A stretch of DNA of 64,000 nucleotides from a virus. A program made the translations under genes and the position numbers. The stretch is from IMG/VR virus record IMGVR_UViG_3300042893_001581, positions 43,969-107,968 of that record, one strand, 5' to 3'. Position 1 is the stretch's first letter. Every line of letters begins with the position of its first letter. Under the pieces are notes generated by a model. The model saw only the letters and a program-made list of their open reading frames with translations, had not been told where the DNA came from and did not search any database. Below are positions 4,759-43,982 of this stretch, in pieces.

Positions 4759-5199
4759 ATGGGACAAGTAGATCAATTAAGAAAACTAATAAGAGAAGAG
4801 CTCAGAGCTGTTCTTAAAGAAGAACTTCCTAAACTATTAAGTGAGGTTAAAAAAACTCCTATGGCAGACCCTAAAAAGAGCTTACAAGAACAGGTAAAAT
4901 CAAAAATACCTGGTACTTTGAACACTGCTATTCCTAAACCTATTAAATTTACAGGAAACAATCCTATGGCAGCATTCTTAAATGATACTGCCCAAAATAT
5001 GTTAAATGAAGACTTTAATATGACTTCAGATAATATACACCCAGGACTAGCTTTCCAACCTAAAGAAGTTAAGGTCGGTAGTGTAGAAGGTATGTTAGGA
5101 ACAGCAAGAGCGAGTTCAAACTTGGATGCTGTACAAATAAACGAGGTTCCAGACTTTACAGGCCTTATGACAAAACTTAAAGAACAAGGACAAATATAA
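4759..5199 (+). CDS. hypothetical protein with L/I-x-E-rich N-terminus
   Basis: LRKLIREELRAVLKEE N-terminus; 146 aa. Confidence 0.8.
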   Translation: MGQVDQLRKLIREELRAVLKEELPKLLSEVKKTPMADPKKSLQEQVKSKIPGTLNTAIPKPIKFTGNNPMAAFLNDTAQNMLNEDFNMTSDNIHPGLAFQPKEVKVGSVEGMLGTARASSNLDAVQINEVPDFTGLMTKLKEQGQI

Positions 5200-5612
5200 T
5201 GGCTTACGGATTAAAACAAATATCGCCATTAGATTTTAAGCCATCAACAGCAATTGGGGTAAAAATCCCTTTTGATGCTGAAAATGTATTTTCGTCTGTA
5301 TACACTACCAAGGATCAAATAAAATATAATATTATTAATTTTTTATTAACTGATCCTAGAGAAAGAGTTTTTAATCCTACTTTTGGGGCTGGTCTTAGAG
5401 CTAGGTTATTTGAACAAATAGATCAAGCATCTTTTGAAGAAATTAAGCAGTCTATAAGAACTCAAATGGAAAATCAATTCCCTCAAGTTCAAGTTACTAC
5501 TTTAGATATTATAGGAAGTCCTGATTATAATTCAATCAATATAAAATTTAGTTATAGACTATTAAGATCAAATGAAAATGATTCGGTTGTATTGACTATA
5601 CAAAACATGTAG
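5199..5612 (+). CDS. baseplate wedge subunit, T4 gp25/GPW-like
   Basis: IKYNIINFLLTDPRERVFNPTFGAGLRARLFE is the gp25 family motif. Confidence 0.9.
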   Translation: MAYGLKQISPLDFKPSTAIGVKIPFDAENVFSSVYTTKDQIKYNIINFLLTDPRERVFNPTFGAGLRARLFEQIDQASFEEIKQSIRTQMENQFPQVQVTTLDIIGSPDYNSINIKFSYRLLRSNENDSVVLTIQNM

Positions 5613-5614
5613 AA

Positions 5615-7474
5615 ATGGCTAACCAAGTTGACATTAAATATTTAAACAAAGATTTTGCTTCTTTAAAAGCAGATCTAATAGAATATGCAAGAGCATACTA
5701 TCCTACTGCGTACAATGACTTTACTCAGGCATCACCTGGTAGTATGTTTATTGATATGGCTTCTTATGTAGGAGATGTGCTTTCATTTTATTTAGACAAT
5801 CAACTACAAGAAACATTTTTACAATATGCTAAACAAAAAGGTAATTTATTTACCTTAGCTTACATGTTAGGTTATAGACCTAAAATAACTTCTGCAGCTA
5901 TAGTGAATCTTGATGTATATCAACAATTACCTGCGGTTAGTCTTGGTGGTAGCAATGTAGCTCCTGACTTTACTTATGCAATGACTATAGAGCAGGGAAT
6001 GCAAGTTAAATCAAATGTAAATAGCTCTGTAATATTTTATACTCCTCAAAAAGTTAATTTTGCATCATCTTCTTCTTTAGATCCGACTACAGTAGAAGTA
6101 TATACAATAAATGGAAGTAATGTTCCTACATCTTATCTTCTAAAAAAGACTGTTCAAGCTTTATCAGGACAAACTAAAACTCAAACTTTTAGTTTTTCAT
6201 CTCCACAAAGATTTGCAACCGTAAATATATCAGATAGTTCTATTATTACAATATTAGAAGCAAAAGATTCTGACGGTAATACTTGGTATGAAGTTCCTTA
6301 CTTAGCTCAAGATTATATATTAAAGCCAGTACAAAATACTGCAGCTAACTATCCATCATTATATCAATTCCAGAATCAGGTTCCTTATATGATACAGAAG
6401 TTATCTGTGCCTAGAAGGTTCACATCTAGATTTAGAGCTGATGGTTCTTTAGAAATAGAATTTGGTCCTGGTATCAATTCAGTTGCCGATACAGCGGTAC
6501 TTCCTAATCCTAATAATGTAAGTGTTGGTTTAACTGGTGGTGGACTTAGCACTCTATCTAGTTCATTTGATCCAACAAACTTTGTTACAACTCAAACATA
6601 TGGATTAGCTCCAAAAAATACAAGTATATCATTTCAATATTTAGTGGGTGGCGGTGCTTCTGCAAATGCTTTAAGTAATCAATTAACTCAAATTGTATCT
6701 TATACAGTAACAGGAAATACAACCTATCAAAATACTATAGTAGTAAATAATGTAGATCCTGCTTCAGGAGGTGGCGACGGTGACACTGTAGATGAACTTA
6801 GAATGAATATTGCAGCAGAATTTCCTACTCAATATAGAGCAGTTACTCAAGAAGATTATTTGGCGAGAACTCTTAGTATGCCTCCTCAATATGGTAAAAT
6901 ATCAAAGGCATATATAACTAAAGATGACGCAACATTCAATAATTACATGCAAGGTGATTTTAGTCAAAAAGATCAAGTATTAGTTAGTCTTTATGTATTA
7001 GGTCTTGATGCTAATAATAATATAGCAGATCCTTCACCAGCGTTACTTCAAAATCTACAAACATATTTGTCAGATTATAGAATGATGACTGATGCCATTA
7101 ATATTAAACCTGGTTATGTAATTAATATAGGCTGCAATTTTGAAATTATAATTAGACCTAATTACACTGGTCAAGATGTAATTGCTAGATGTATATTAAC
7201 TTTACAAGACTTTTTTAATATAAATAATTGGCAAATAAATGAACCAATTATATTAGGAGACATCTATTCTTTATTAGATGTAGTTGAAGGAGTTCAAACA
7301 GTAAAAGATGTGAGGATAGTAAATAAATCTGGTGAAGCTGATGGATATTCAAAATACTCTTACGATATATCAGCAGGCTCTTTAAATGGTGTTATTTATC
7401 CTTCTTTAGATCCTTCTATATTTGAAGTAAAATTCCCTAATACAGATATTCAAGGTCGTGTAGTAACAATGTAA
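5615..7474 (+). CDS. baseplate wedge subunit, T4 gp6/baseplate J-like
   Basis: KDFASLKADLIEY, DMASYVGDVLSFYLD, LAYMLGYRP, GGGDGDTVDELR, QYRAVTQEDY motifs. Confidence 0.9.
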   Translation: MANQVDIKYLNKDFASLKADLIEYARAYYPTAYNDFTQASPGSMFIDMASYVGDVLSFYLDNQLQETFLQYAKQKGNLFTLAYMLGYRPKITSAAIVNLDVYQQLPAVSLGGSNVAPDFTYAMTIEQGMQVKSNVNSSVIFYTPQKVNFASSSSLDPTTVEVYTINGSNVPTSYLLKKTVQALSGQTKTQTFSFSSPQRFATVNISDSSIITILEAKDSDGNTWYEVPYLAQDYILKPVQNTAANYPSLYQFQNQVPYMIQKLSVPRRFTSRFRADGSLEIEFGPGINSVADTAVLPNPNNVSVGLTGGGLSTLSSSFDPTNFVTTQTYGLAPKNTSISFQYLVGGGASANALSNQLTQIVSYTVTGNTTYQNTIVVNNVDPASGGGDGDTVDELRMNIAAEFPTQYRAVTQEDYLARTLSMPPQYGKISKAYITKDDATFNNYMQGDFSQKDQVLVSLYVLGLDANNNIADPSPALLQNLQTYLSDYRMMTDAINIKPGYVINIGCNFEIIIRPNYTGQDVIARCILTLQDFFNINNWQINEPIILGDIYSLLDVVEGVQTVKDVRIVNKSGEADGYSKYSYDISAGSLNGVIYPSLDPSIFEVKFPNTDIQGRVVTM

Positions 7475-11900: not shown

Positions 11901-13027
11901 TTACAACTCAAAATGTATTTAAATCAGGAGAAACTTTAGATGTTTCTTTATTTGATTATGATAATACAAATCCTTATATTCAAAAACTAACAGATAATAA
12001 TACATTTACTATATATGAAGGTGGATATAGATACAGCCCTATTTTATTTAATGTAGGAGGTAGTGGAAGTATGAATTACGTATTAGATGAACCTATACAA
12101 GTTACCAGCTCAGTTACTATACCTTCTACAACACCTTTATCTCCAGGAAATACTAATTATTGGACAATAAATAATTCTGATTTAGATCTATATAAACCTA
12201 ATGCATTTGCACCTTTATTACTACAAATAACTGGAAGTTCTGTAGTAGGTGGGTCTTCTACAGCGGCGGTAAATATATCTTTACAAGTAAGAAATACCTC
12301 AGCAAGAAATAATGTATTCTATAATGTACCAGAATTTCAAATACCACAATCAGTTTCTAACTATAAATTCACTATTAATTTACCAAGTAGTACTTACTCT
12401 GACTGGGTTGCAGATGATATTGTTGTTGTTAATAGTTTATCTGAGGTTCAATTTAATCCAAATGGAGGAGGGACAGTTGATTCTGTAGAGTTTATAACAA
12501 GTATAACAGATCGAGATACATGTTGGGTTGCAATAGATCCAAGAACTATAAAAATGTCTCTTACTCAATCTGCATATTATGATGAAGGTTTTATTTTCAC
12601 AGGTAGTTATCCAGGTATAGAAACGCCTGTATTTGATTTCACTTTAAATCAAATGGATTTATTAAGATTTTATAATACAGGAAGTGGATGGTCAATAAAT
12701 TCTGAATATAGAGTATCGTCAGTTCAACCATATATAGATTCAACTGGGTCCTACTATAGTATAACTATTGATAGAGATCTTAATTTATCGGACACATCTG
12801 GATCTTCATATCCTGCAAAAATTTGCAAGTATATTATTCTAAAAAGACTTCCTGATGAAACTAATGTTATATTAAATTATAATTTAGGGACTCCTATAAC
12901 TCAAGACGGAATATTATTTCCTCAATATATAGATCCTATAGTAAGAGACAATTCTGGTAATGTAATTAAATCCTTAAGGCAGCAAAATTTAATCAATCCA
13001 GATACAAATACATTAATTTTCCAATAA
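8933..13027 (+). CDS. large baseplate wedge protein, T4 gp7/P2 gpI-like
   Basis: 1364 aa; IPQYLLDD..FMDMIGQHFD and LYHNLPYLLKSKGTERGVKALISTFG are wedge-protein motifs. Confidence 0.7.
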   Translation: MELVNITYSGEGFQSQDLTPLDKQLVTSNFINSQFGAPEDYLELYIYDENNNLLDFDYDAFDYYPYLTANPKNNTYSVLTLDPEKDLKNRGYNRGNLNIQYNFYKRLFNSAFGTFYWIKEISPSRTELKLASQTISDDSILNGFSQYQSYISNKNYYPVFYLNLGNNQTIIASNVSYTEDEDGSYLLIKLYEPLDADFDLKSQLWIVDKVAESVSYNVSITVEAENIDQVNRLRGPNFNVQINDKNGQTTPYYNYDNLLASPVSSSYQKLLSYYQDRSVAINVDYTNFTNFVHFSSATERVNNFVYKVGLIEQYKQQQSNQSIIAGGSGNSSYKSNSIDSAQQAIDNIIEKFDTYEYFLYFNSSSFAWPKSTTTQPYQLYSVTSSQVSNFLGSTSAVPTATTQSLLFSASYYDSTNKDLLHNSIPQYLLDDSNNQPFITFMDMIGQHFDNIWIYYKDLSNRYNATNNPDTGISLDVVGDALKGLGIQLYTNSNVSDNLYYTLFGINADGSLLPPTGSEKITSIGGKYVTSSLETLSAKEIQQELYKRLYHNLPYLLKSKGTERGVKALISTFGIPDDILTVREFGGTPINSVDGVFDLDSSTYKVSIVTGSGGNVTGSLTLSSSLLHPEASLQYYQNINRINTTNIEVGFSPADTINSNIVSSQGYFSIDQLIGAPEYQYSASYTPLVDFNETYFSSYTQKNSIWEYIRLIKFYNNSLFKMIKDYVPARANLSTGIIVKSHMLERNKYARHEPDVTFNDYSQSIDTAFISGSDGGSVIGSTSFTGSIMTPSGSVQFISSDGIEKYNGEFSGSTIVVTSGQEFPQFEISQLPSSSLFVTYSLGALYQNVSQSVRSQILWDLDYNADQTIPVNYGIVTQSINNSQINNYASYTNPNNPYAYVQDYNYNLKRSIYPRYVGSTINSAQYNVYTAGDISYGKTATIDKIKYQYAYLIDIYSSSFQLPRRANAQIKYFIDNDENVLDLTKLNNNIFTTQNVFKSGETLDVSLFDYDNTNPYIQKLTDNNTFTIYEGGYRYSPILFNVGGSGSMNYVLDEPIQVTSSVTIPSTTPLSPGNTNYWTINNSDLDLYKPNAFAPLLLQITGSSVVGGSSTAAVNISLQVRNTSARNNVFYNVPEFQIPQSVSNYKFTINLPSSTYSDWVADDIVVVNSLSEVQFNPNGGGTVDSVEFITSITDRDTCWVAIDPRTIKMSLTQSAYYDEGFIFTGSYPGIETPVFDFTLNQMDLLRFYNTGSGWSINSEYRVSSVQPYIDSTGSYYSITIDRDLNLSDTSGSSYPAKICKYIILKRLPDETNVILNYNLGTPITQDGILFPQYIDPIVRDNSGNVIKSLRQQNLINPDTNTLIFQ

Positions 13028-13030
13028 CAC

Positions 13031-13038
13031 ATATTTAT
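13031..13038 (+). promoter_or_regulatory. candidate late promoter ATATTTAT
   Basis: In a 27-bp intergenic gap, 16 nt before ATG 13055. Confidence 0.55.
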
Positions 13039-13054
13039 TTAAAAGCCCATTTAT

Positions 13055-13714
13055 ATGTCATATTTAAGTAGTACATCAGTAGTAGTAGATGCTATCCTTA
13101 CTAAAAAAGGTAGAGAACTCCTTTCCAGAAATGATGGATCATTTAGAATTACTCAGTTTTCTTTAGCTGATGATGAGATCGATTATACTCTATATAACCC
13201 CACCCACCCATCAGGATCTGCATTTTATGGTGAGGCTATTGAAGCGATGCCAATTATTCAAGCATATCCTAATGATATGGAAATCATGAAGTATAAGCTT
13301 ATTACGCTTCCAAGAGGCACTGCAAAAATTCCAGTATTAGATCTTGGATATACGGCAATTACAATAAAACAAGGAGCTTCTTTAGCAATTACTCCTCAAA
13401 CATTAAATTATCTTGGAGCAACATCAACCTTTGAACAATCAGGATATGTAGCTACAATTGGTGATGTAAGAACAATGAGTTCATTTAATGGAGTTGGTAT
13501 TAATACTCCTGAAGCTACGTCATTAAATAGTACAACAACTATAGGTACTAACGTAAGTAAGACAGTTATAGGAACAACAATTAATTTAACTGCAACCACG
13601 GTTAATACTTTATTTGGCTCTAATACATCTTTATTTACTACCTTAGTCGTAGTAGGTCGTGATTCTGGCGCTAGAATTAGTATTCCTGTAACAATCGTAA
13701 AGGTAACCTCATAA
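13055..13714 (+). CDS. baseplate/tail-collar structural protein
   Basis: N-terminal AILTKKGRELL...ITQFSLAD resembles tail-collar/fibre-attachment N-termini. Confidence 0.55.
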   Translation: MSYLSSTSVVVDAILTKKGRELLSRNDGSFRITQFSLADDEIDYTLYNPTHPSGSAFYGEAIEAMPIIQAYPNDMEIMKYKLITLPRGTAKIPVLDLGYTAITIKQGASLAITPQTLNYLGATSTFEQSGYVATIGDVRTMSSFNGVGINTPEATSLNSTTTIGTNVSKTVIGTTINLTATTVNTLFGSNTSLFTTLVVVGRDSGARISIPVTIVKVTS

Positions 13715-13725
13715 TATATTAAAAT

Positions 13726-14760
13726 ATGTCATTTACAAGATTAGATCCTACAGATTTTGTGGTATCTGCCGACTCAGTAACGGCACCAGCATGGAGTAAT
13801 AATGTAACTACTCTTACTAGTTTTTTTACAGCTTCTGCATCAACTACGGGTAGTTATTACGTTGATGTATATGATGGAAATATAAGTTCTCCATCTGCAT
13901 CAGTTCAATTCTCAGTAGCTTATGGACATTATGCTGGATCTGGATCTTTAGCTCTAAATAGTTTAGTGCTAGGAAAAAGCCCAACTAGAATTACATTTGG
14001 CCAATTTAGAAATTTAATTTATGGAGATGCAGAAAGTGCTGTAAATTTTGGTACGGGAAATGTTGATTCAGATGATTTAATAGCTATTCAAATAGATAGA
14101 AATAGATATAAAGAGAGTTTATTCCCAGGTACTTTTAATTTAACTTTACTTAATGGTGCCAACGGTCCTATTAAATTAACTGATAACTCAAATGATGTAA
14201 GTACTATAACATATTTAGACGGTGGAAGAGTTTATAATATAGTATCTGGTTCTAATGGAACGGCTAAAAATAGTCCAACTTTATCTGGAGCAACTCAAGG
14301 AAATACTGTGTCAGGAAGTTATGGTTTATTTTTACCTGACATTGGATTAATTCTTTTAAACCCTAGAGCTTTATCTTTGGGCACTGCTGCTGGTGGAATT
14401 GTTACTTCATTCAATACAACAGCAAATACAGTAGCTGCATCTAGTGCAAATAATAATTTAATCTATGCTATAATTAATTCTGGTTCTAATTTTCAACTTA
14501 ATTCTCAAGAAACAATCTCTTCTGATTATGTATTTGTAAGATTTAAAAATGCTGACTATAACTATACTACTAATCCTTCATTTATAACGGGTTCTGGTGA
14601 ATTAATATATTCTAATTTCATTAATAGTCCTCAAACATATCCTACAACTGTTGGATTGTATAACGATAACAATGAATTATTAGCAGTAGCTAAAATGTCT
14701 AAACCTCTTACAAAAGACTTTACTAAAGAGGCTCTTATTAGAGTTAAATTAGATTGGTAG
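13726..14760 (+). CDS. baseplate/tail-collar structural protein (intact paralogue)
   Basis: C-terminal TTVGLYNDNNELLAVAKMSKP..K...IRVKLDW is a tail-collar-type motif. Confidence 0.6.
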   Translation: MSFTRLDPTDFVVSADSVTAPAWSNNVTTLTSFFTASASTTGSYYVDVYDGNISSPSASVQFSVAYGHYAGSGSLALNSLVLGKSPTRITFGQFRNLIYGDAESAVNFGTGNVDSDDLIAIQIDRNRYKESLFPGTFNLTLLNGANGPIKLTDNSNDVSTITYLDGGRVYNIVSGSNGTAKNSPTLSGATQGNTVSGSYGLFLPDIGLILLNPRALSLGTAAGGIVTSFNTTANTVAASSANNNLIYAIINSGSNFQLNSQETISSDYVFVRFKNADYNYTTNPSFITGSGELIYSNFINSPQTYPTTVGLYNDNNELLAVAKMSKPLTKDFTKEALIRVKLDW

Positions 14761-14783
14761 TAAAATACTACAATAGTTTATAA

Positions 14784-16829
14784 ATGGGAATGTCAAAAAA
14801 TACTCTTGATAGATCAGATATTTCTACTTTTCCTATAAAGTTAAAATATTCTTCATCTTATGCAAGTTCATCTGCTGTAAGTTATGGAATAACTTTAAAT
14901 AGAGGAATTAATGGATCTTTTAATTCTGACGGAGAAGATTTTCTAGTATATAAATTAGCTAAACAACTATATTATAATTCTTATTTAACTGGATCTTTAA
15001 ATAATACTGCAAGTGCTTGGAATGACAATTTACAATCCACGGCAGCATCAGGTACTTTTGATAATGATTATAGATATTTTCCAACTACATCGGGTGATGA
15101 AATAACAGTATTAGCAATACCTAGGACTGTTTTTGGTGAAAATATAAGTAGAAAAAGTTTTGTATTATCAGGAACTACTTATAATTTAATTGATGACGGT
15201 AATGGAAATGTTATAGATGTAAATAATAATAACGTACATGTAGGAAATATATTATATGCTCAAGGAATAGTTATTATTACAAATTTAGATTATGAGTATG
15301 CTCTAATACAAACAACGACAACGACAACTACTACTAGTACTACATCAACTACTACTACTGCGGCACCTACAACCACTACTACTAGTACAACAACTAGTAC
15401 AACTACGGCTGCGCCGACTACTACTACTAGTACAACAACTAGTACAACTACGGCTGCGCCGACTACTACTACTAGTACAACAACTAGTACAACTACGGCA
15501 GAGCCGACTACTACTACTAGTACAACAACTAGTACAACTACGGCAGAGCCGACTACTACTACTAGTACAACAACTAGTACAACAACAGAAACTCCAACAA
15601 CTACCACAACTACTAGTACAACCACTAGTACAACAACTGTTGCATCTACAAACCATTTTAGAAGTGTAACTCCTCAAAGTAGTGCTGCTAACGCTTGTCT
15701 ACAAAGTACACCGAATGATATCTATACTTCTGTAGCAACATCTACTATGGCAAACAGTATTGTATTCTATTCAGATGCTAATTTAAACACTGTTTTTAAT
15801 GGTGCAAGCCAATGGTTCAAAATATTATGGAAAGGATCTGTAGGATTTGATGATATTTATGCAGTACAAATTAATTCGTCAGGTGTAGTGTTAAATTGGG
15901 AATACTGCCCAACAACTACCACAACAACTAGTACAACAACAGGAGTTCCTACAACCACTACAACTAGTACAACGACTAGTACAACAACAGAAGTTCCTAC
16001 AACCACTACAACTAGTACAACGACTAGTACAACTACAGCAGCTTGTTATGAATATGTAGCAACGGCAGGCCAAACAGATATAGATAATTCAGATAATGGA
16101 ACTGTTTATTTTAACTATACAGATTGTGATGGAAATCCTCAAACTCTTAGCAGAGGAACAACTACTCCAAGCAATCCAGTTTGTGCTATAAATGTAGGAA
16201 GTGTTTATATATTAATAGGAGGAAATCAATCCGCAGCTGGAAGCAGTTCATGGAGTACACCTGGAACACAGTGTAATGGAGCTCCAACGACCACAACTAC
16301 TAGCACTACAACAGAAGCTCCGACAACAACTACTACTAGCACGACTACTAGTACTACAACTGTAGTACCTACTACAACAACGACTAGTACAACTACATCA
16401 ACAACAACAGAAACTCCAACAACAACTACTACTAGTACAACAACTAGTACTACAACTGCAGAACCAACTACAACTACAACGACAACTAGTACAACTACAT
16501 CAACAACTACAGCAGAGCCTACTACAACCACAACAAGTACAACTACAACAACTACAACTATAGCTTGTTATGAATATATAGCTACAGCAGATCAAACAGA
16601 TATAGATAATTCTGATAACGGAACTGTTTATTTTGAGTATGTTGATTGTGATGGAGTAACCCAAACACTAACTAGAGGAACAACAACTCCAAGTGATCCG
16701 GTATGTGCAAGAAGCGTAGGATCAGTTTATATATTAATAGGAGGAAATGCATCAGCTGCAGGTGGTAGTTCTTGGAGCGTACCTGGTACACAATGTAATC
16801 CTGGTGGCGGTGGTGGAGGTGGAGCGTAA
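14784..16829 (+). CDS. structural protein: tail-collar-like N-domain fused to mucin-like Thr/Ser/Pro stalks and Cys modules
   Basis: First ~176 aa resemble the N-half of 13726-14760; then three Thr tracts, one unique module and two 79-aa 4-Cys modules; poly-Gly C-terminus. Confidence 0.85.
   Translation: MGMSKNTLDRSDISTFPIKLKYSSSYASSSAVSYGITLNRGINGSFNSDGEDFLVYKLAKQLYYNSYLTGSLNNTASAWNDNLQSTAASGTFDNDYRYFPTTSGDEITVLAIPRTVFGENISRKSFVLSGTTYNLIDDGNGNVIDVNNNNVHVGNILYAQGIVIITNLDYEYALIQTTTTTTTTSTTSTTTTAAPTTTTTSTTTSTTTAAPTTTTSTTTSTTTAAPTTTTSTTTSTTTAEPTTTTSTTTSTTTAEPTTTTSTTTSTTTETPTTTTTTSTTTSTTTVASTNHFRSVTPQSSAANACLQSTPNDIYTSVATSTMANSIVFYSDANLNTVFNGASQWFKILWKGSVGFDDIYAVQINSSGVVLNWEYCPTTTTTTSTTTGVPTTTTTSTTTSTTTEVPTTTTTSTTTSTTTAACYEYVATAGQTDIDNSDNGTVYFNYTDCDGNPQTLSRGTTTPSNPVCAINVGSVYILIGGNQSAAGSSSWSTPGTQCNGAPTTTTTSTTTEAPTTTTTSTTTSTTTVVPTTTTTSTTTSTTTETPTTTTTSTTTSTTTAEPTTTTTTTSTTTSTTTAEPTTTTTSTTTTTTTIACYEYIATADQTDIDNSDNGTVYFEYVDCDGVTQTLTRGTTTPSDPVCARSVGSVYILIGGNASAAGGSSWSVPGTQCNPGGGGGGGA
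15312..16559 (+). repeat. coding tandem repeats (~45 bp, A[A/E]PTTTTSTTTSTTT)
   Basis: Tracts 15312-15638, 15912-16037 and 16287-16559; unit ccgactactactactagtacaacaactagtacaactacggc(t/a)g(c/a)g. Confidence 0.95.
16041..16799 (+). repeat. duplicated 237-bp Cys-rich module
   Basis: 16041-16277 and 16563-16799 both encode ACYEY.ATA.QTDIDNSDNGTVYF.Y.DCDG..QTL.RGTTTPS.PVCA..VGSVYILIGGN.SAAG.SSWS.PGTQCN. Confidence 0.95.
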
Positions 16830-16840
16830 CAACTTTCACA

Positions 16841-16848
16841 ATATTTAT
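16841..16848 (+). promoter_or_regulatory. candidate late promoter ATATTTAT
   Basis: 20 nt before ATG 16869. Confidence 0.55.
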
Positions 16849-16868
16849 TAATATAAAATAAAACTGTT

Positions 16869-17825
16869 ATGAAAAATTTACGTTATATTTGTGCTCAACC
16901 TAGATTGGTTTATTATGCTTGGCAAGTAGAAGTTATGATTAATAATTTCATTAAGAATGGAATTAATCCTAATAATATAGATATTCTTGTAGCTTGGAAT
17001 CCTAATGATGATACAAGTAAGCCAGAGACTATTGAGATGTGGAATAAACTTACAGCTCATTATAATACTGTCAGATTCTTTTTTTATGAAGATACTAGGA
17101 AAAAGCCTATACACTACATTTCATCCATTAGGCCAAACATACTGAAGCAACACTTTAAAGCTCACCCTGAATTAAAAGACGAGGCAATATTTTATCATGA
17201 TTGTGATATTTTATTTACTAAGCCTGTTGATTGGACTAATCTATTAAATGATGATATTTGGTATTTAAGTGATACCAATAGTTATATAAACTCCTCGTAC
17301 ATACTTTCTAAGGGTGAGGATGTTTACAACAAGATGTGTGAGATTGTTGGTATAGATTCAATAGTACCAAAACTAATGAACTCTAATTCAGGTGGTGCAC
17401 AGTACATACTAAAAAATGTAGGTTGGGAATATTGGACAAAAGTAGAACAAGATTCTGAAAACTTATTTTACCAAATAAATCAACTAAATCATAAGAAGAA
17501 AGAAGAAGATCCATCTCATCATGAACTTCAAATATGGTGTGCAGATATGTGGGCCGTGTTGTGGAACGGGTGGCTTTGGGGTAATGAAACAAAGGTAATT
17601 AAAGAAATGGATTTTAGTTGGGCAACAGATTCAGAAGAACGATTTAATGAAACAAATATATTTCATAATGCAGGAGTAACTTGTTCTTGTGGAGGAAAGT
17701 TTTATAAAGCTAACTATAGAGATTCACTTCCTTATAATTTAGATCTTAGAATAAAAGAAGGAATGGCAAGTTATAAATACTATCAAGAAATTCAAGAAGT
17801 AGAAAAAAAATCTTCTTTATTGTGA
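16869..17825 (+). CDS. GT-A glycosyltransferase resembling HPAT/SGT1 (GT95/GT96) peptide O-glycosyltransferases
   Basis: SIRPNILKQHF / AIFYHDCDILFTKP (DxD) / GGAQYIL / WCADMWA parallel N(R/K)P...W, D.D.IF..P and W..EMY.. of those families. Confidence 0.55.
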   Translation: MKNLRYICAQPRLVYYAWQVEVMINNFIKNGINPNNIDILVAWNPNDDTSKPETIEMWNKLTAHYNTVRFFFYEDTRKKPIHYISSIRPNILKQHFKAHPELKDEAIFYHDCDILFTKPVDWTNLLNDDIWYLSDTNSYINSSYILSKGEDVYNKMCEIVGIDSIVPKLMNSNSGGAQYILKNVGWEYWTKVEQDSENLFYQINQLNHKKKEEDPSHHELQIWCADMWAVLWNGWLWGNETKVIKEMDFSWATDSEERFNETNIFHNAGVTCSCGGKFYKANYRDSLPYNLDLRIKEGMASYKYYQEIQEVEKKSSLL

Positions 17826-17836
17826 TTAAATAAATT

Positions 17837-18412
17837 ATGAAAATAGAATTTATAATATCAACTCATGGTAGAGTTAATAACTTAAATATGTCTTTAGGTT
17901 GTTTACAAAGTCAAACAAATAAAAATTGGGTAGCTAATATTATAGTTGACGGAATTAAAGATCCATACATTGAGTGTGAAAAATATTTTTCAAATGATGA
18001 TAGAATAATATTTAATTATTTGGAAAAAAATTATAATGACTTTGGGAATACTCCAAAAAATATAGGATTGCAATCAGCAAAAGAAGAATTAGTTATTATG
18101 ACTAGCGATGATAATTATTACGTTGCATCTTTTGTTCAAGAAGTATTAAATAATTATTCGGAAAATATTAATTTTATTTATTGTGATATGATACATAATG
18201 GATATGATTATAAATTTTTTGAAACGTACCACTCATCTCATAGAATAGATATTGGTATAATGATTATGAAAACAAAATTTGCTAAACAATTAAAATTAAC
18301 AGAAAACAGAATAGACTCAGATGGAATTTTTTGTCATGAATATACTTCTAAATTTTGTCAAAATGAAGGGTCAATTAAAAAAATAAATAAAATTTTATAT
18401 GCTCATAATTAA
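17837..18412 (+). CDS. GT2-family glycosyltransferase
   Basis: IEFIISTHGR..LQSQT..W..IIVDG; GNTPKNIGLQSAKEELVIMTSDDNYY. Confidence 0.8.
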   Translation: MKIEFIISTHGRVNNLNMSLGCLQSQTNKNWVANIIVDGIKDPYIECEKYFSNDDRIIFNYLEKNYNDFGNTPKNIGLQSAKEELVIMTSDDNYYVASFVQEVLNNYSENINFIYCDMIHNGYDYKFFETYHSSHRIDIGIMIMKTKFAKQLKLTENRIDSDGIFCHEYTSKFCQNEGSIKKINKILYAHN

Positions 18413-19274
18413 AGCTCTATACGGAAATAAAGATTGCACTCAACAAATTAAGTCTAAAATTGTAAATGATAAATTAATAGTTAGATCATGTAACGATATT
18501 ATAGGTGATACACTTCCTGGAGTTATAAAATATCTTGAAGTAGATATAGAGCATAAAAATAAAATTTATAATGAAAAAATTAAAGAGGGAGAGTTATTAG
18601 TTTTTCCTAAATCAAAAAATAATAAATTAGGAATTTTTTATTCTAATAATCATGTCTCTCAAACTTATCCTACTATAAAAAAATCTTTAGATACAATAAA
18701 AATAGCATCAGAAGGAAAAGCAGATATTTTAACTTGTATGTGGAATCACGAACCTGATAATCCATTTCCTGAATTTATTTCTTGGGTAAAGATATCTAGC
18801 CACCTAAATCAATTGCTTCAAATAATGCATTTATTATATCAAGCAAGAGAGATTAATAATTATAATTATGTTTCTTTTCTAGAACATGATGTTCTTTATC
18901 CAGAAGGATATTTTGATTATCCAGAAATAAATGATGGAGAAGTTTTAACTAATATGAATTATATGGGGATTTGCAGAAGCGGTTGGCAAAGTTTAGGGCA
19001 GTTAGATCAACCATTTCATCAAATGACTATGAAATTTTCAGAAGCAATAAAACATTGTGAATCTATATTGTCTAATGCGTTAATAAGAAATTCAGGTCTT
19101 ATAGAACCTCAAAATATTATCAGAAAAACTTGGAATTGTATTAATCCCTCTGTCCATGTTAATCATGGATATCATTTTACTTCTCACTTTAATGTGTACA
19201 GAAAAGATGATATTTTTCACGAACATTCATATTGGGGAATTTTTGAAAACTATAAGTATTTATTTGAGTTTTAA
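18399..19274 (+). CDS. SUEL/rhamnose-lectin-like (DUF3395-like) domain fused to a GT-A-like domain
   Basis: N-term IIKALYG..DCT..NDIIGDTLPGVIKYLEV; C-term YVSFLEHDVLYP. Confidence 0.55.
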   Translation: MLIIKALYGNKDCTQQIKSKIVNDKLIVRSCNDIIGDTLPGVIKYLEVDIEHKNKIYNEKIKEGELLVFPKSKNNKLGIFYSNNHVSQTYPTIKKSLDTIKIASEGKADILTCMWNHEPDNPFPEFISWVKISSHLNQLLQIMHLLYQAREINNYNYVSFLEHDVLYPEGYFDYPEINDGEVLTNMNYMGICRSGWQSLGQLDQPFHQMTMKFSEAIKHCESILSNALIRNSGLIEPQNIIRKTWNCINPSVHVNHGYHFTSHFNVYRKDDIFHEHSYWGIFENYKYLFEF

Positions 19275-19281
19275 TATTTAT
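19274..19281 (+). promoter_or_regulatory. candidate late promoter ATATTTAT
   Basis: 4 nt before ATG 19286. Confidence 0.5.
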
Positions 19282-19285
19282 AAGT

Positions 19286-19585
19286 ATGCCATCTTATTCT
19301 GCATATACACTTAATTTAGTAGCCGAGACAACTGTATACCAAAACGAAGTTAGGTGTAGGGTGAAGGAAAATGATTTTAACTATACGTTAAATCCGAGTG
19401 CAAATAAAGCAGGAACCTCAGGTTCTTATATAGATGCAGTAACAGGTTCAGACTTTCATCCTTATACAACCACAGTAGGATTATATAATGATAAAGATGA
19501 GTTATTAGTAGTTGGAAAATTATCTAGGCCATATCCAATTCCACCTAATACAGATATGACTTTTATTATAAGGTGGGATAGTTAA
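19286..19585 (+). CDS. C-terminal half of a split tail-collar-like protein
   Basis: CRVKENDFNYTLNPS...PYTTTVGLYNDKDELLVVGKLSRP...FIIRWD aligns with the C-half of 13726-14760. Confidence 0.8.
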   Translation: MPSYSAYTLNLVAETTVYQNEVRCRVKENDFNYTLNPSANKAGTSGSYIDAVTGSDFHPYTTTVGLYNDKDELLVVGKLSRPYPIPPNTDMTFIIRWDS

Positions 19586-19595
19586 AAAATAAAGT

Positions 19596-20051
19596 ATGAA
19601 TAAATGGTTATATTTTGATCCTCTAGGAGTTACTAGAGAGTTTAATTCAATAGAAGACTTTCCACCCAATACTGTTGGCTTTATATATAAGATTGTCAAT
19701 CTAGTCAATGGCAAATTCTATATAGGTAGAAAGGTCCTTTTCAATAATACCAATAAAGTATTAACCAAGAAGGAGATCGCGGAATGGGACAAACCTGGGC
19801 GCGTCCCACGCAAGAAGAAGATCATTAAAGAATCTGATTGGTTATCATACCATGGAAGTAATAAGCTTCTTAATCAAGAAAGAAAAGAAATAGGGGATGA
19901 TATGTTTACTAGAGAGATCTTACAATTATGTTACTCTAAAAAACAATTGACTTATTATGAAGTATGGTGGCAAATGCATTACAAAGTTCTTCATATAGAT
20001 TCATATAACGATAATATCCAAGGTAGGTTCTATAGAAAGGATGTAGAATAA
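19596..20051 (+). CDS. GIY-YIG endonuclease, T4 EndoII/Seg-like
   Basis: GFIYKIVNLVNGKFYIGRK, Y.GS, FTREIL, YYE, YNDNI motifs. Confidence 0.85.
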   Translation: MNKWLYFDPLGVTREFNSIEDFPPNTVGFIYKIVNLVNGKFYIGRKVLFNNTNKVLTKKEIAEWDKPGRVPRKKKIIKESDWLSYHGSNKLLNQERKEIGDDMFTREILQLCYSKKQLTYYEVWWQMHYKVLHIDSYNDNIQGRFYRKDVE

Positions 20052-20078
20052 AAAAAGCCCTGGCACTTGCCGAGGGCT
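20050..20078 (-). terminator. intrinsic terminator at the convergence of the two gene blocks
   Basis: AGCCCT-GGC-actt-GCC-g-AGGGCT hairpin with an A7 tract on the left (U7 on the - strand). Confidence 0.75.
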
Positions 20079-20099
20079 ATATGTATGGGCTTGCAAAGG

Positions 20100-20339
20100 T
20101 TAATTCCAATCAATTATCTTATGTAAGGTATCTTTATCTATATTTGCTTTTAAAGCTTTGATAACAGCTTGTTCAAATTCAACTCTAGGATATCCTGTAT
20201 TATCTTCATCTGGGCCAATCTTATCTCCTGTAAGACCTGCTGCATCCAACTGATCATTGTCCATATAATCAAATTCTCTTGGACTAATTTCTTTTAGAAG
20301 AGGATTGTTTGCTGTAAATTGCTTAAAGTTGAATGCCAT
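20100..20339 (-). CDS. small acidic protein, possible internal head protein
   Basis: MAFNFKQFTANNPLLKE N-terminus resembles that of the upstream gene. Confidence 0.7.
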   Translation of the reverse strand: MAFNFKQFTANNPLLKEISPREFDYMDNDQLDAAGLTGDKIGPDEDNTGYPRVEFEQAVIKALKANIDKDTLHKIIDWN

Positions 20340-20352
20340 ATTATTTTTTTAA

Positions 20353-21984
20353 TTAGTCTATATTTCTGTAACTAGGATCAGAAAAAGGATTTTTATTAGA
20401 TTTAGGAGATATATCTTTAATTCTTCTATCAGAAGTTGATAAATATCCTTCAGGGCTTATTGTAACAGGTATGATATCTTCTTCACGATCAGCACCAGGA
20501 ACAATTCCAGGTTTTAATCCTCTAAGAACACTATTATCTCTATCTAATGTATAAGTCATTGTATTAGTACCGAAATCAACAGTATATTCTTCTGAGCCTT
20601 CCATTTGAACACCAGCATCATATCCAGCAATTTCTTCATTTTGAGAAAAGTCAGTAGCAAAGAAGTCAACTATGTCTTGAAATTCAAAACCATCATCAAC
20701 AAGAGCCTCTATACTATCCTTAACTAGCGGATGTCTTGCAAGAACGGTAAATATTGTTCTATCTGCGTATCCTTGTTCTCTAGCACCATCAATAACAGAC
20801 TTTACTTGGCCAAGACGTGGTTGTATACTTTGATCAATAAGTCCCATCATGCGATCAAACTTACCTTGCTCATCTGGCATTAATGAAGGAAATGGATTTA
20901 CAGAATCATCATAATCCATACTGTCTACTTCTTCTACGCTGTCTTCTTTAACAGATTTGTTTTTTACTATATCAAAGAATAATACGTTCTTAGAATCAGT
21001 ATCAAAATCATCATCTTTAGTAACACTTTGAGGATCTATTTGCCAACCAGGGAATTTTGTCTGAAGTAAATTTTTAATATCAGTAAAAGCAGCTTTACTT
21101 ACTTTACTTTCAATAGAAATTGCAATTCCACCGTCCCCAACAATTTTATTGCCTATCCTTGCTACAGTTGGTGCAATTCTTACATTCTCATATTCCTCTT
21201 GATCAGGTCTAGCTTTTTTATATCCGTATTTTTTTTGAATAGCAAATAGTTTTGACATTAAACTATCTTTATCGCCTTTATCTGCTTCTTCTACAGGACT
21301 GTCTTGTACAAATTCATCACCAAAGCCATCCACCTTACTTTCTGGGCCTTCATATGGAATTTCTGTATCCAAATACATTTCCTCTTCTTCTCCTAGTTGG
21401 TTGTATTCATCTAATCCAGGAGGATTAACAGTCCAAGAAGTCAAATAATTAAATGGACCCGGATTTAAAATTCTCTTTTTTTCTACTTTTACCATTTTAG
21501 CATAAGCATCTTTAACTTCTTCTGGTGAAATACCAGTTAATTTAAACTCTATCTCTTCAAATTCATCTTTTATTACTTTAGCGTTGCCTCTGAGACTTTT
21601 TACAAATTTTATAAATGTTTTAACGGCAAATCTTTGATCACCATCACTAATACTTGGATAATCGTAATAAGATAAGGTTATGGTTTCAGAATTTTTGCCT
21701 GAGTTCATCTTTTTTTCTTTAAGCTCTTCTATATCCTTAGTGTAAACTTTATATACTTTTCCTATTTTCACTACTTTTACATCTTTATTAGGATTGCCTG
21801 TCTTTTCCACTTTAGCAAAACGATCTGCTAATTCTTTGTTCTCCGTAGCTCCAAAGTCTGCTTGTTCCCAGCCTTCTAGATCTTCTACTTCTTTTAAAGC
21901 ATGAAGGTCTACATAGCCACCAAGAATAGCATGAGGACCAAGGTGGTTCTCTTTTAAATACTTTGCAATGTTAAAATCTTTCAT
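20353..21984 (-). CDS. acidic multi-module protein, possible protease-processed internal head protein
   Basis: MKDFNIAKYLKEN start; recurrent L/V/I-x-E sites; ATATTTAT upstream (22004-22011). Confidence 0.7.
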   Translation of the reverse strand: MKDFNIAKYLKENHLGPHAILGGYVDLHALKEVEDLEGWEQADFGATENKELADRFAKVEKTGNPNKDVKVVKIGKVYKVYTKDIEELKEKKMNSGKNSETITLSYYDYPSISDGDQRFAVKTFIKFVKSLRGNAKVIKDEFEEIEFKLTGISPEEVKDAYAKMVKVEKKRILNPGPFNYLTSWTVNPPGLDEYNQLGEEEEMYLDTEIPYEGPESKVDGFGDEFVQDSPVEEADKGDKDSLMSKLFAIQKKYGYKKARPDQEEYENVRIAPTVARIGNKIVGDGGIAISIESKVSKAAFTDIKNLLQTKFPGWQIDPQSVTKDDDFDTDSKNVLFFDIVKNKSVKEDSVEEVDSMDYDDSVNPFPSLMPDEQGKFDRMMGLIDQSIQPRLGQVKSVIDGAREQGYADRTIFTVLARHPLVKDSIEALVDDGFEFQDIVDFFATDFSQNEEIAGYDAGVQMEGSEEYTVDFGTNTMTYTLDRDNSVLRGLKPGIVPGADREEDIIPVTISPEGYLSTSDRRIKDISPKSNKNPFSDPSYRNID

Positions 21985-42698: not shown

Positions 42699-43982
42699 TT
42701 ACTCTATAGTCAATAATGAATAGTCGAACGGTGGATTAGTTACAACAATTTGATCCTGGGCTAAATCTACCATGTTTCTGATCTCTATTTTAGCAGATCC
42801 TAATTCATATATTCCAGGTTCAGAAGCTTCTAGGATGTCACCCAAGCGCGTTATATTTTGTAAGAATTCGTCTTTAGATGGATCTACGTTTGTAAAGTTT
42901 ACTTCTATTTTTATATTATAATCTGTAGGTTCTCCCACTTTATAAATTGACTTAAAATCTGTAGTTCTAAATAAATGCTTAGCCTGTTCCCAACCTTCAT
43001 TAGTATATCCTAAAAGTGTATTAGCTGGTTCTTGTTCATTACTTAAGGTTCGAATCATGGCATTTACCTCTTCCTCTGATCTCAGCCACAGTCTAGAACA
43101 GTAAACTTCTAATTGCGCTAAGAACATTGGGTTTAATTGTTTATTGTCTTTTACTACAAGATCTATATCTAATTTTTTTAACTTACTTTCTCCATGATTA
43201 AAATTTCCCCACTTTTTTAAAAATCTTCTAATCTCTATTCCGTCTGCAATCTTTTGTAGTTCTACTCTTTCTTTTGCTTCTTTATTGTTTTCGTCAAACC
43301 AATTTTTTCCTCTAGAACTTACACAAGTAAAATGATAAACAACTGGTTTAAATGTTTGTTTTAACTTTATTCCAGATTGAACACATCTTTGTACAAAATC
43401 TGAATCCTCTCTAGATCTTCTAAATATAGTATCATAGCCTCCGATCTTTTGCCATGTTTTTTTATAAAAAGTATATGGAGCAAAAAAGTATTCAGCTACT
43501 TTATTTTCCTTTACAGTAATAGAATATGAATTCCAATCTTCTATATTGAATTGTAAAGGATCTACGCCAAAATCTTTTATTATTACAACATTAGATGGAC
43601 CATGAAGTGGTGGTTCTACTCTAGTTGAACTTATTATACAATCATCTTCTATTTCAGATAGTATGTCTATATCATAATTTGGTGATATAACCATATCACT
43701 TTGAAGATAACTAACTATATTATGTTTAGCTATATCAACAAGAAGATTGGAGTTCCTTTGATATCCTACTGGCCCTTTAAGTTTATGTGTTACTATTTTT
43801 AAATCGTAAAAATCTTTTTTAATACTTTTAAGATATTGATATGTTCCATCATTATCTTTATCTATAAAAACTATAATCTCATGTTCTTTACCAACTAAAT
43901 TAATTTTTAAAGATTCTAATAGTAATTTAGTATATTCTAAAGTGTTAGCTCCTGTGTTTGTTATAAAACTTATTGGTTCCAT
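42699..43982 (-). CDS. GT2-family glycosyltransferase
   Basis: ISFI...EIIVFID..NDGT; SYLQSDM; IGGYD..F..SREDSDFVQR; VYHF. Confidence 0.85.
   Translation of the reverse strand: MEPISFITNTGANTLEYTKLLLESLKINLVGKEHEIIVFIDKDNDGTYQYLKSIKKDFYDLKIVTHKLKGPVGYQRNSNLLVDIAKHNIVSYLQSDMVISPNYDIDILSEIEDDCIISSTRVEPPLHGPSNVVIIKDFGVDPLQFNIEDWNSYSITVKENKVAEYFFAPYTFYKKTWQKIGGYDTIFRRSREDSDFVQRCVQSGIKLKQTFKPVVYHFTCVSSRGKNWFDENNKEAKERVELQKIADGIEIRRFLKKWGNFNHGESKLKKLDIDLVVKDNKQLNPMFLAQLEVYCSRLWLRSEEEVNAMIRTLSNEQEPANTLLGYTNEGWEQAKHLFRTTDFKSIYKVGEPTDYNIKIEVNFTNVDPSKDEFLQNITRLGDILEASEPGIYELGSAKIEIRNMVDLAQDQIVVTNPPFDYSLLTIE

Follow-up and report, generated by a model that had tools for sequence, protein, structure and literature searches.

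A split gene in the baseplate region of a lake phage encloses an exchangeable cassette with a threonine-rich protein and predicted glycosyltransferases

We analysed a 64,000-nt piece of an AT-rich phage genome (~30% GC; IMG/VR record IMGVR_UViG_3300042893_001581, positions 43,969 to 107,968; below, the window) with a focus on its region 14784-19585. In this region one small gene is encoded in two separated pieces, and the space between them holds a threonine-rich extension of the first piece together with three genes, here named gtA, gtB and gtC, that are predicted to encode glycosyltransferases (GTs). Both pieces of the gene are conserved, the site between them carries different genes in different relatives, and homologues of gtA directly follow threonine-rich genes in most of the loci evaluated. 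The split gene flanks a site of cassette exchange, and we consider it probable that the Thr-rich fibre is glycosylated by the products of gtA-gtC and that the two halves of the split protein re-associate on the virion. The open reading frames (ORFs) concerned, including the upstream neighbour of the split gene, all lie on the + strand (13726-14760, 14784-16829, 16869-17825, 17837-18412, 18399-19274 and 19286-19585). At least 24 metagenome runs of lake or freshwater origin, from 21 studies, contain near-identical DNA of 14784-19585, and no RNA run was listed among them.

A gene in two pieces around a swap site

The first 176 residues of the protein encoded at 14784-16829 (N-half; 14784..15311, + strand, the conserved left arm) and the detached 99-aa protein encoded at 19286..19585 (C-half; + strand) both match gp105 of Flavobacterium phage immuto, which belongs, with Microcystis phage Mel-JY01 and Rhodothermus phage RM378, to the closest cultured relatives. 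In immuto gp105 is a 357-aa protein encoded by one ORF; its residues 62-234 align with residues 54-167 of the N-half (E 1e-6) and its residues 241-356 with the C-half (E 6e-25). For a wider comparison we used 80 IMG/VR loci of matching synteny (219-aa gene, 344-aa gene, split-type gene, GIY-YIG gene); relatives' loci are labelled below with L-numbers, among which L002 is Mel-JY01, L164 Enterococcus phage VPE25 and L165 Staphylococcus phage SA2. About 30 of the 80 loci contain a single uninterrupted ORF of 269-338 aa, and in three relatives (L020, L033 and L035) residue 171 of the N part directly joins residue 3 of the C part within one ORF. An uninterrupted gene, for which an earlier note on this DNA had proposed to look in relatives, was found. 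At the same time, the two-ORF layout of the window recurs in more than 25 relatives.

The gene immediately upstream (13726..14760, + strand; 344 aa) is an orthologue of immuto gp106 (tblastn, 48% over the full length) and has 569 relatives in IMG/VR. Its C-terminal domain resembles the detached C-half (BLASTP E 5e-13, 41% over 78 aa), just as the earlier note had stated. The companion claim, that the N-terminal 176 aa of the split protein match the N-half of 13726, was not borne out in that form: BLASTP gave no match for the N-terminal ~176 aa (best E 2.9), and profile-profile alignment with hhalign returned a marginal 27 columns at the quoted motif (E 0.0055 for a single comparison, probability 6.7%). 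Since immuto gp105 and the single-ORF orthologues match both halves, 14784(1-176) and 19286 are, to judge from homology, two pieces of one gene, and 13726 is its paralogue and not the gene that was split. A C-terminal domain of the 13726/19286 type also ends five consecutive genes of Mel-JY01 (L002 7853-16799), and it thereby marks a family of baseplate-region fibre proteins. The order of the pieces is permuted in L045 (11071-13011) and L046 (11076-13013), where a C-half gene comes first and is followed by two genes of the N-half type. Among eight split loci the C-half evolves under strong purifying selection (dN/dS 0.03-0.15 at dS 0.4-0.87), and the median dN/dS of the N-half is 0.23; by this measure both halves are functional.

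The DNA between the conserved arms (15312..19272, + strand) is a variable cassette whose content, or cargo, differs among the 80 relatives. In blastn comparisons with L003, L009, L011, L012 and L007, homology ended at about position 15311 and restarted at 19273. Some relatives have no cargo and are split all the same (L009, with a 92-nt spacer, L023/24 and L040). In others the cargo is gtA alone (L008) or gtA with a radical SAM/SPASM or GT2 gene and without a Thr tract (L003, L010, L004). A Thr-rich extension together with gtA and one to three further genes was observed in the window, L007, L011, L012, L014, L038, L039, L042-44, L047 and L071, and long Cys-rich proteins without GTs in L016, L048, L054, L056-58, L062, L066-68 and L079. 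Some of the cargoes without GTs contain Gly_rich_2 or SprB-repeat domains (L048:13451-14794; L016:3452-4858), the SprB repeat being known from gliding adhesins of Flavobacterium. Relatives' cassettes also hold GT2, GT6, GT32-like and GT61-like genes, FkbM methyltransferases and radical SAM/SPASM genes, and their content is, by these family assignments, a kit for building and tailoring glycans.

In the spacer of L009 (L009:11584-11678), the leader of gtA and the initial ATGAAA of its coding sequence are joined to the last 15 codons of an L003-like radical SAM gene. Read in this way, the spacer is the deletion scar of an L003-like cassette in a gene that is still split, and it indicates that cargo can be lost while the gene remains in two pieces. 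The earlier note had described a mucin and GT block inserted into a split gene. A Thr-rich protein and GTs do lie between the two pieces; an insertion into an intact gene is not what we found, as the site is already split in relatives with other cargo or none. Because relatives are split with no cargo, with other fibres or with other GT sets, the insert of the window did not cause the split, and the comparison of these loci identifies the Thr/GT block as one cargo among many at an old hypervariable swap site.

The conserved right arm begins with the motif ATATTTAT (19274..19281, + strand), which lies 5 nt upstream of the C-half start codon in the window and is kept, 5-7 nt before that codon, in most split relatives. 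According to the earlier note, the GT block and the C-half each have their own ATATTTAT. Both copies are indeed present (at 16841 and 19274), but the word is not enriched across the window (25 found, 23 expected) and the copy upstream of 16869 is not conserved in relatives.

The threonine-rich protein and its associated glycosyltransferase genes

In the 681-aa protein (14784-16829), the sole Thr-rich ORF of the 64-kb window, the reading frame of the N-half runs on into the cargo, and 262 of the 506 residues after about residue 175 are Ser or Thr. Thr-rich linkers alternate here with Cys modules, all on the + strand. Linker 1 (residues 176-288, 113 aa, 69% Thr; 15309..15647) is composed of 15-aa repeats TTTTSTTTSTTTA[A/E]P and forms a tandem repeat at the DNA level (period 45 nt, 5.7 copies, 92% matches). 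It is followed by globular module 1 (residues 289-378, 90 aa, 2 Cys; 15648..15917), which has only viral hypothetical look-alikes. Linker 2 (residues 379-417, 39 aa, 72% Thr; 15918..16034) leads to the four-Cys module A (residues 418-498, 81 aa; 16035..16277), and linker 3 (residues 499-591, 93 aa, 71% Thr; 16278..16556) to the four-Cys module B, which ends in a Gly7-Ala tail and the stop codon (16557..16829); modules A and B are 82% identical. Taken together, the linkers contain 69-72% Thr, 11-13% Ser and 5-6% Pro in 45/48-nt tandem repeats, i.e., the tandem Thr/Ser repeats with Pro by which mucin-like (PTS) sequences are recognised. The earlier note's description of ~500 aa of Thr/Ser/Pro stalks with Cys modules on the N-half, followed by three GT genes, was thus accurate.

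The copies of the Cys modules in L011 are identical in protein sequence (module 1, 100%). In L022 (L022:8132-9256) an intact orthologue has a similar four-Cys module inserted in its C-terminal part, so that this module behaves as a mobile domain. No match to the Cys modules was found in cultured phages, and Atlas gave only unnamed viral clusters with scores <0.9. In two bins with ACT repeats (15196-15369 and 16414-16587) the summed lake depths were 900-1460 vs. about 10 elsewhere, suggesting that many other contigs in these lakes carry similar DNA coding for Thr repeats.

The first gene after the Thr-rich ORF, gtA (16869..17825, + strand), belongs to PHROG 4417, a family of unknown function (E 3e-63). 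Its AlphaFold2 (AF2) model has a pLDDT of 97, and Foldseek matched it to the UGGT catalytic domain, LgtC and others (E 4e-8). Structural comparison with VIA gave glycogenin (Z 15.4, rmsd 3.4, 228 aligned), LgtC and Skp1 alpha-galactosyltransferase (Z 14.7), the catalytic domain of UGGT (Z about 14) and GlyE (Z 13.5), which belongs to the GTs that modify the Ser-rich repeat protein of pneumococci. In the motif D111-x-D113, D111 is nearly invariant and D113 invariant among 42 diverse homologues. On the evidence of modelled fold and DxD motif, gtA is a GT-A-fold glycosyltransferase whose catalysis is predicted, and it is a candidate for the enzyme that initiates Thr O-glycosylation. In the spacer upstream of gtA (16858-16864), all four lake runs differ from the window (A>T, one A inserted, C>T).

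The homologues of gtA fall into 3677 clusters at 90% identity and 862 at 50%. Among 3677 near-length matches, 862 representative clusters and 90 longer matches there was no named eukaryotic relative, and none named as one of the plant-type peptidyl Ser/Hyp O-glycosyltransferases (GT96 SGT1, GT95 HPAT). The long relatives are fusions, most commonly to radical SAM/SPASM domains and further to GT2, GT6, GT11, GT32-like and methyltransferase domains. The SPASM radical SAM enzyme is fused to gtA in proteins P0274-P0327 and is a separate gene in L003 (12567-13598) and L010. This partner hints at a possible second, non-sugar modification of the same substrate.

The second gene, gtB (17837..18412, + strand), encodes a putative small GT2-like glycosyltransferase with an orthologue in L071; NCBIfam models of the GT2 type matched it at E 1.5e-5 to 3e-3, with scores that fall far short of the cut-offs of these models. 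The product of gtC (18399..19274, + strand) has a predicted GT-A-type catalytic domain (~residues 70-291) behind a 70-aa N-terminal domain. In the Atlas model (pTM 0.76), residues 70-291 align with GT2, GT6 and GT8 clusters at TM 0.5-0.65, which is lead-grade evidence; Pfam gave no match for gtC, and a sequence search of the PDB gave spurious or very short matches only. Residues 27-52 (within 18399-18610) weakly match a rhamnose-binding lectin of the SUEL type (5h4s, E 4e-4, 26 residues), and a lectin-plus-GT layout would recall the mucin GalNAc-transferases. In about 40 of 78 loci gtC and gtA are found together. On the strength of models and profiles, all three genes are GT-A-type glycosyltransferases, gtB weakly so by its GT2 profiles.

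A Thr-rich partner of gtA was counted if it ended no more than 400 nt upstream on the same strand (in some loci the partner is Thr/Ser-rich). Such an ORF directly precedes gtA in 69 of 97 evaluable loci, vs. 23 of the 749 other ORFs of those loci (3%). By gtA clusters at 70% identity, 21 were positive throughout, 2 mixed and 11 negative. The co-occurrence of Thr tracts with homologues of 16869, a check that the earlier note had proposed, is accordingly observed well above the baseline. In the split-gene lineage gtA lies directly downstream in 12 of 12 complete Thr-rich loci, and most of the gtA/Thr-rich loci lie outside the split-gene context. L129 and L139, for instance, have as Thr-rich partner the tail tube protein of a siphovirus (Pfam Phage_tail_2). 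Homologues of gtA are present in 77 cultured phages. In Enterococcus phage phiFL1A (gp50/gp51), Staphylococcus phage SA2, Lactococcus phage 1706 (orf13/orf14) and Clostridium phage phiCTP1 (gp18/gp19) the gene directly before the homologue encodes a major tail or tube protein with a poly-Thr end, and in Lactobacillus phage Semele (gp075/gp076) it encodes a 116-aa protein composed of a small domain and Thr repeats. Phage GT genes thus adjoin genes for Ser/Thr-extended virion proteins, the arrangement that characterises virion glycosylation of the mycobacteriophage type. With the gtA family directly following Thr-rich virion proteins in this majority of loci, comparative genomics lends good support to a glycosylated fibre, although glycosylation is unproven.

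In two of the cultured phages an extra Thr-rich ORF in another frame lies upstream of the gtA homologue: in SA2 (L165:2667-2930) it comes after the major tail gene, and in VPE25 (L164 ~2760-2900) after a 400-aa unannotated protein. A programmed frameshift may add a Thr-rich extension to a fraction of the subunits in these phages.

Proposed mechanism and competing explanations

The mechanism that we propose starts from a small protein whose coding sequence closes the baseplate gene block (downstream of the gp25-like and gp6-like wedge genes) and is divided here between two genes around a cassette-exchange site. In the infected cell, gtA would place the first sugar on the Thr tracts, and gtB and gtC would extend the glycan, resulting in a stiff, protease-resistant, mucin-like stalk that shows the Cys modules; the three GTs would act as soluble GT-A enzymes. 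The C-half would be made from its own start behind the conserved ATATTTAT and would donate its first beta-strand to the N-half, so that the ancestral fold would be rebuilt and sit on the virion.

Several observations weigh against this account. Glycosylation, the order of the enzymes, re-assembly, virion location and a biological role in adhesion or shielding are predicted here from the genes, and the baseplate placement of the split protein from gene order. For the intact orthologue (AF2 pLDDT 75.5), Foldseek returned nothing with an E value of 0.001 or lower, and the best match to solved structures with VIA (Z 4.5) was to generic beta-sandwich pieces of phage tails; the fold is thus like nothing solved, and the word "baseplate" is taken from gene position. 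For gtA, searches of Pfam, NCBIfam and the PDB gave no sequence-level relative of known function: there was no Pfam match at E up to 0.1 (Glyco_transf_8 included) and none in NCBIfam, GT8 being a neighbour at the level of fold only, and single-sequence and profile searches of the PDB returned spurious or very short matches (TALE with the profile). The match of gtB to Pfam PF00535 (E 2.5e-4, 21.5 bits) is under the cut-off of 23.3. In four relatives of the split lineage (L003, L004, L008 and L010) gtA is kept, with a dN/dS of 0.10-0.12, and there is no Thr tract on the N-half; no poly-Thr coding runs were found elsewhere on the contigs of these relatives, which are only 7-34% complete. Also, a phage group (L096-L103, L109-L112) carries gtA and gtC without a Thr-rich neighbour. 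The earlier note had regarded the region as a self-contained module. The four relatives, with split halves and the same first GT in the absence of a Thr tract, contradict this and show the very pattern that the note had named as refuting its reading; the module is not strictly self-contained.

A different target of the GTs (other virion proteins, phage DNA or the host envelope), with the Thr tracts as plain flexible linkers that merely share the variable region, appears unlikely to us. It would explain why gtA is under selection without an adjacent Thr tract in the four relatives just mentioned, why gtA and gtC occur together in a non-structural context (L096-L112) and why gtA of Chryseobacterium phage MA9V-3 is preceded by a protein that is not rich in Thr. 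Against it stands the excess of Thr-rich ORFs directly upstream of gtA, which extends over many gtA lineages and unrelated virion proteins. The nearest folds of gtA are, moreover, retaining GT8-like enzymes of which several act on proteins (glycogenin, GlyE and Skp1 galactosyltransferase), and gtA is found fused to SPASM radical SAM domains, as is typical of peptide and protein modification.

Another explanation concerns the two halves, which would no longer cooperate: the C-half would be a small protein in its own right, acting in the virion or in assembly, and the fibre would be anchored by the N-half alone. We regard this as improbable, even if the C-half is read from a separate start codon behind a conserved motif, if its domain recurs at the ends of several paralogues (13726 and four Mel-JY01 proteins) and if the C-half precedes two N-type genes in L045/L046. 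The two pieces always occur together at the split-gene site, and a complex prediction for N-half and C-half with separate alignments gave an ipSAE of 0.76 vs. 0.00 for the best of three controls; among 80 solved complexes 58 score this high, compared with 2 among 110 mismatched pairs, counts that are only approximate here, as own alignments were used. The runs share at least 86% of contacts at a partner pLDDT of at least 67. In the modelled interface residues 1-27 of the C-half lie against residues 12-29 and 116-133 of the N-half, with the first strand of the C-half in the N-half sheet, and since no similar structure turned up among solved ones, this result probably does not reflect a fold already familiar to the predictor. 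Binding of the C-half to the N-half by strand complementation is thus supported by the model. That the split is an artefact or a sign of decay, i.e., an assembly chimera across repeats, a pseudogene remnant or a pair of halves rejoined by an intron or intein, we hold to be very improbable. Repeat DNA is prone to misassembly, and the short-read contigs break within the Thr repeats, which the short lake contigs leave unbridged. Yet contigs from four lake metagenomes of separate studies cover 14500-15404, 15554-15973, 16004-16937 and 16713-19700 with 0-2 differences, and they confirm the junctions N-half/linker, module B/stop/gtA and gtC/C-half in a stretch carried by all the runs counted above. 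The low dN/dS of the C-half speaks against decay, and the two-ORF layout is shared by more than 25 relatives. An Rfam scan of 13000-21000 (E up to 0.1) matched no family, introns included, and a Pfam search gave no intein domain; the insert holds four separate ORFs and the C-half starts with its own codon. The split architecture is not an assembly artefact.

The split-gene region lies at the end of a structural block on the + strand, composed of a gp25-like gene (5199-5612), a gp6-like gene (5615-7474; baseplate wedge) and ORFs of 1364, 219 and 344 aa. Neither the 1364-, 219-, 344- and 681-aa proteins nor the C-half could be assigned to a family by searches of Pfam, NCBIfam and PHROGs. Downstream of the C-half there is a gene for a GIY-YIG SegE-like endonuclease (19596..20051, + strand; Pfam PF19835, E 2.5e-25), which holds this position in nearly all relatives (41-97% identity), whether the split-type gene is intact or in two pieces. 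It is a fixed neighbour of the hypervariable site and may promote exchange there. The label "NAD synthetase" that PHROG 447 gives to 19596-20051 looks wrong.

Relation to known systems and significance

A 2023 study by Freeman et al. in Cell Host Microbe is said to describe virion glycosylation in the mycobacteriophages Che8, Corndog and Myrna. To our knowledge, virion glycosylation by phage enzymes has so far been documented for actinobacteriophages, and a literature search for Thr-rich tracts paired with GTs on phage tails found no paper that describes such a pairing. The nearest described system is the virion glycosylation of mycobacteriophages, and the nearest cellular analogue is found in the loci of Ser-rich repeat adhesins with their own GTs. 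As summarised in PMC12619734, mycobacteriophage capsid and tail-tube C-termini bear glycans made by phage GTs (Freeman 2023). The window resembles the mycobacteriophage system in that phage GTs adjoin structural genes and in that the putative acceptor extends virion proteins such as the tail tube at one end; the modification in the cytoplasm before assembly is counted as a further likeness. It differs in its GT family, the unnamed PHROG 4417, and in the long, almost pure Thr repeats that take the place of short C-terminal tails. The hosts would be non-actinobacterial (an immuto-related lake phage, and Firmicutes phages with gtA homologues), and the acceptor of the window would be a baseplate-region fibre in a split gene.

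With the Ser-rich repeat adhesins of Gram-positive bacteria and their dedicated GTs (GtfA/B, Gtf3, GlyE and others) the window shares a gene for a repetitive Ser/Thr substrate clustered with variable soluble GTs, which would act stepwise and in the cytoplasm. Unlike these loci, it has neither a GT-B GtfA/B pair nor accessory Sec export, its product would belong to the virion, and the repeats are of Thr and not of Ser. Genes in pieces are known from T4-like phages, in which nrdA of Aeh1 is split by mobE and the T4 topoisomerase is encoded by genes 39/60. The likeness consists in an essential-looking gene that is present as two conserved ORFs, with products expected to re-associate and an endonuclease gene at the site. 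In contrast to those cases, the halves in the window enclose exchangeable cargo (fibres, GT kits) and no homing endonuclease, and the GIY-YIG gene comes after the C-half, also where the gene is intact. Like retaining GTs of the GT8/GT24/GT77 type (glycogenin, LgtC, UGGT, Skp1), gtA has a predicted GT-A fold over ~230-245 residues and a DxD motif; unlike them, it is only 8-13% identical and falls in no Pfam or NCBIfam family. In eukaryotic mucins tandem Pro/Thr/Ser repeats serve as scaffolds for dense O-glycans, and Mimivirus and the chloroviruses have glycosylated fibrils made with their own enzymes. The window has comparable tandem Pro/Thr/Ser repeats and virus-encoded candidate enzymes of glycosylation, in a bacterial virus that has no secretory pathway and with unrelated enzymes.

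A more far-reaching proposal, on which we find the evidence evenly balanced, is that PHROG 4417 founds an undescribed GT family whose members initiate O-glycosylation of the mucin type at poly-Thr tracts in virion proteins; in the present lineage the split-gene halves would be the arms of the cassette. The acceptors would be tail tubes, baseplate fibres and small FN3-like decoration proteins, and the family would reach over thousands of phages of unrelated hosts, including cultured phages of Enterococcus, Staphylococcus, Lactococcus, Lactobacillus and Clostridium. In that case many phage particles would have a self-made glycan coat.

The analysis thus ties a very common, unnamed GT family by gene order to virion poly-Thr, in lake phages as well as in cultured phages of Firmicutes. 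That the Thr tracts are glycosylated is a prediction that can be tested directly in existing laboratory phages. If it is true, sugar coats on phage particles would be widespread, with a bearing on adsorption, on resistance to proteases and grazing, on stickiness to polysaccharide matrices and on the recognition of therapeutic phages by antibodies. The split gene itself shows a structural gene as a stable docking site for exchangeable cassettes of fibres and modification enzymes.

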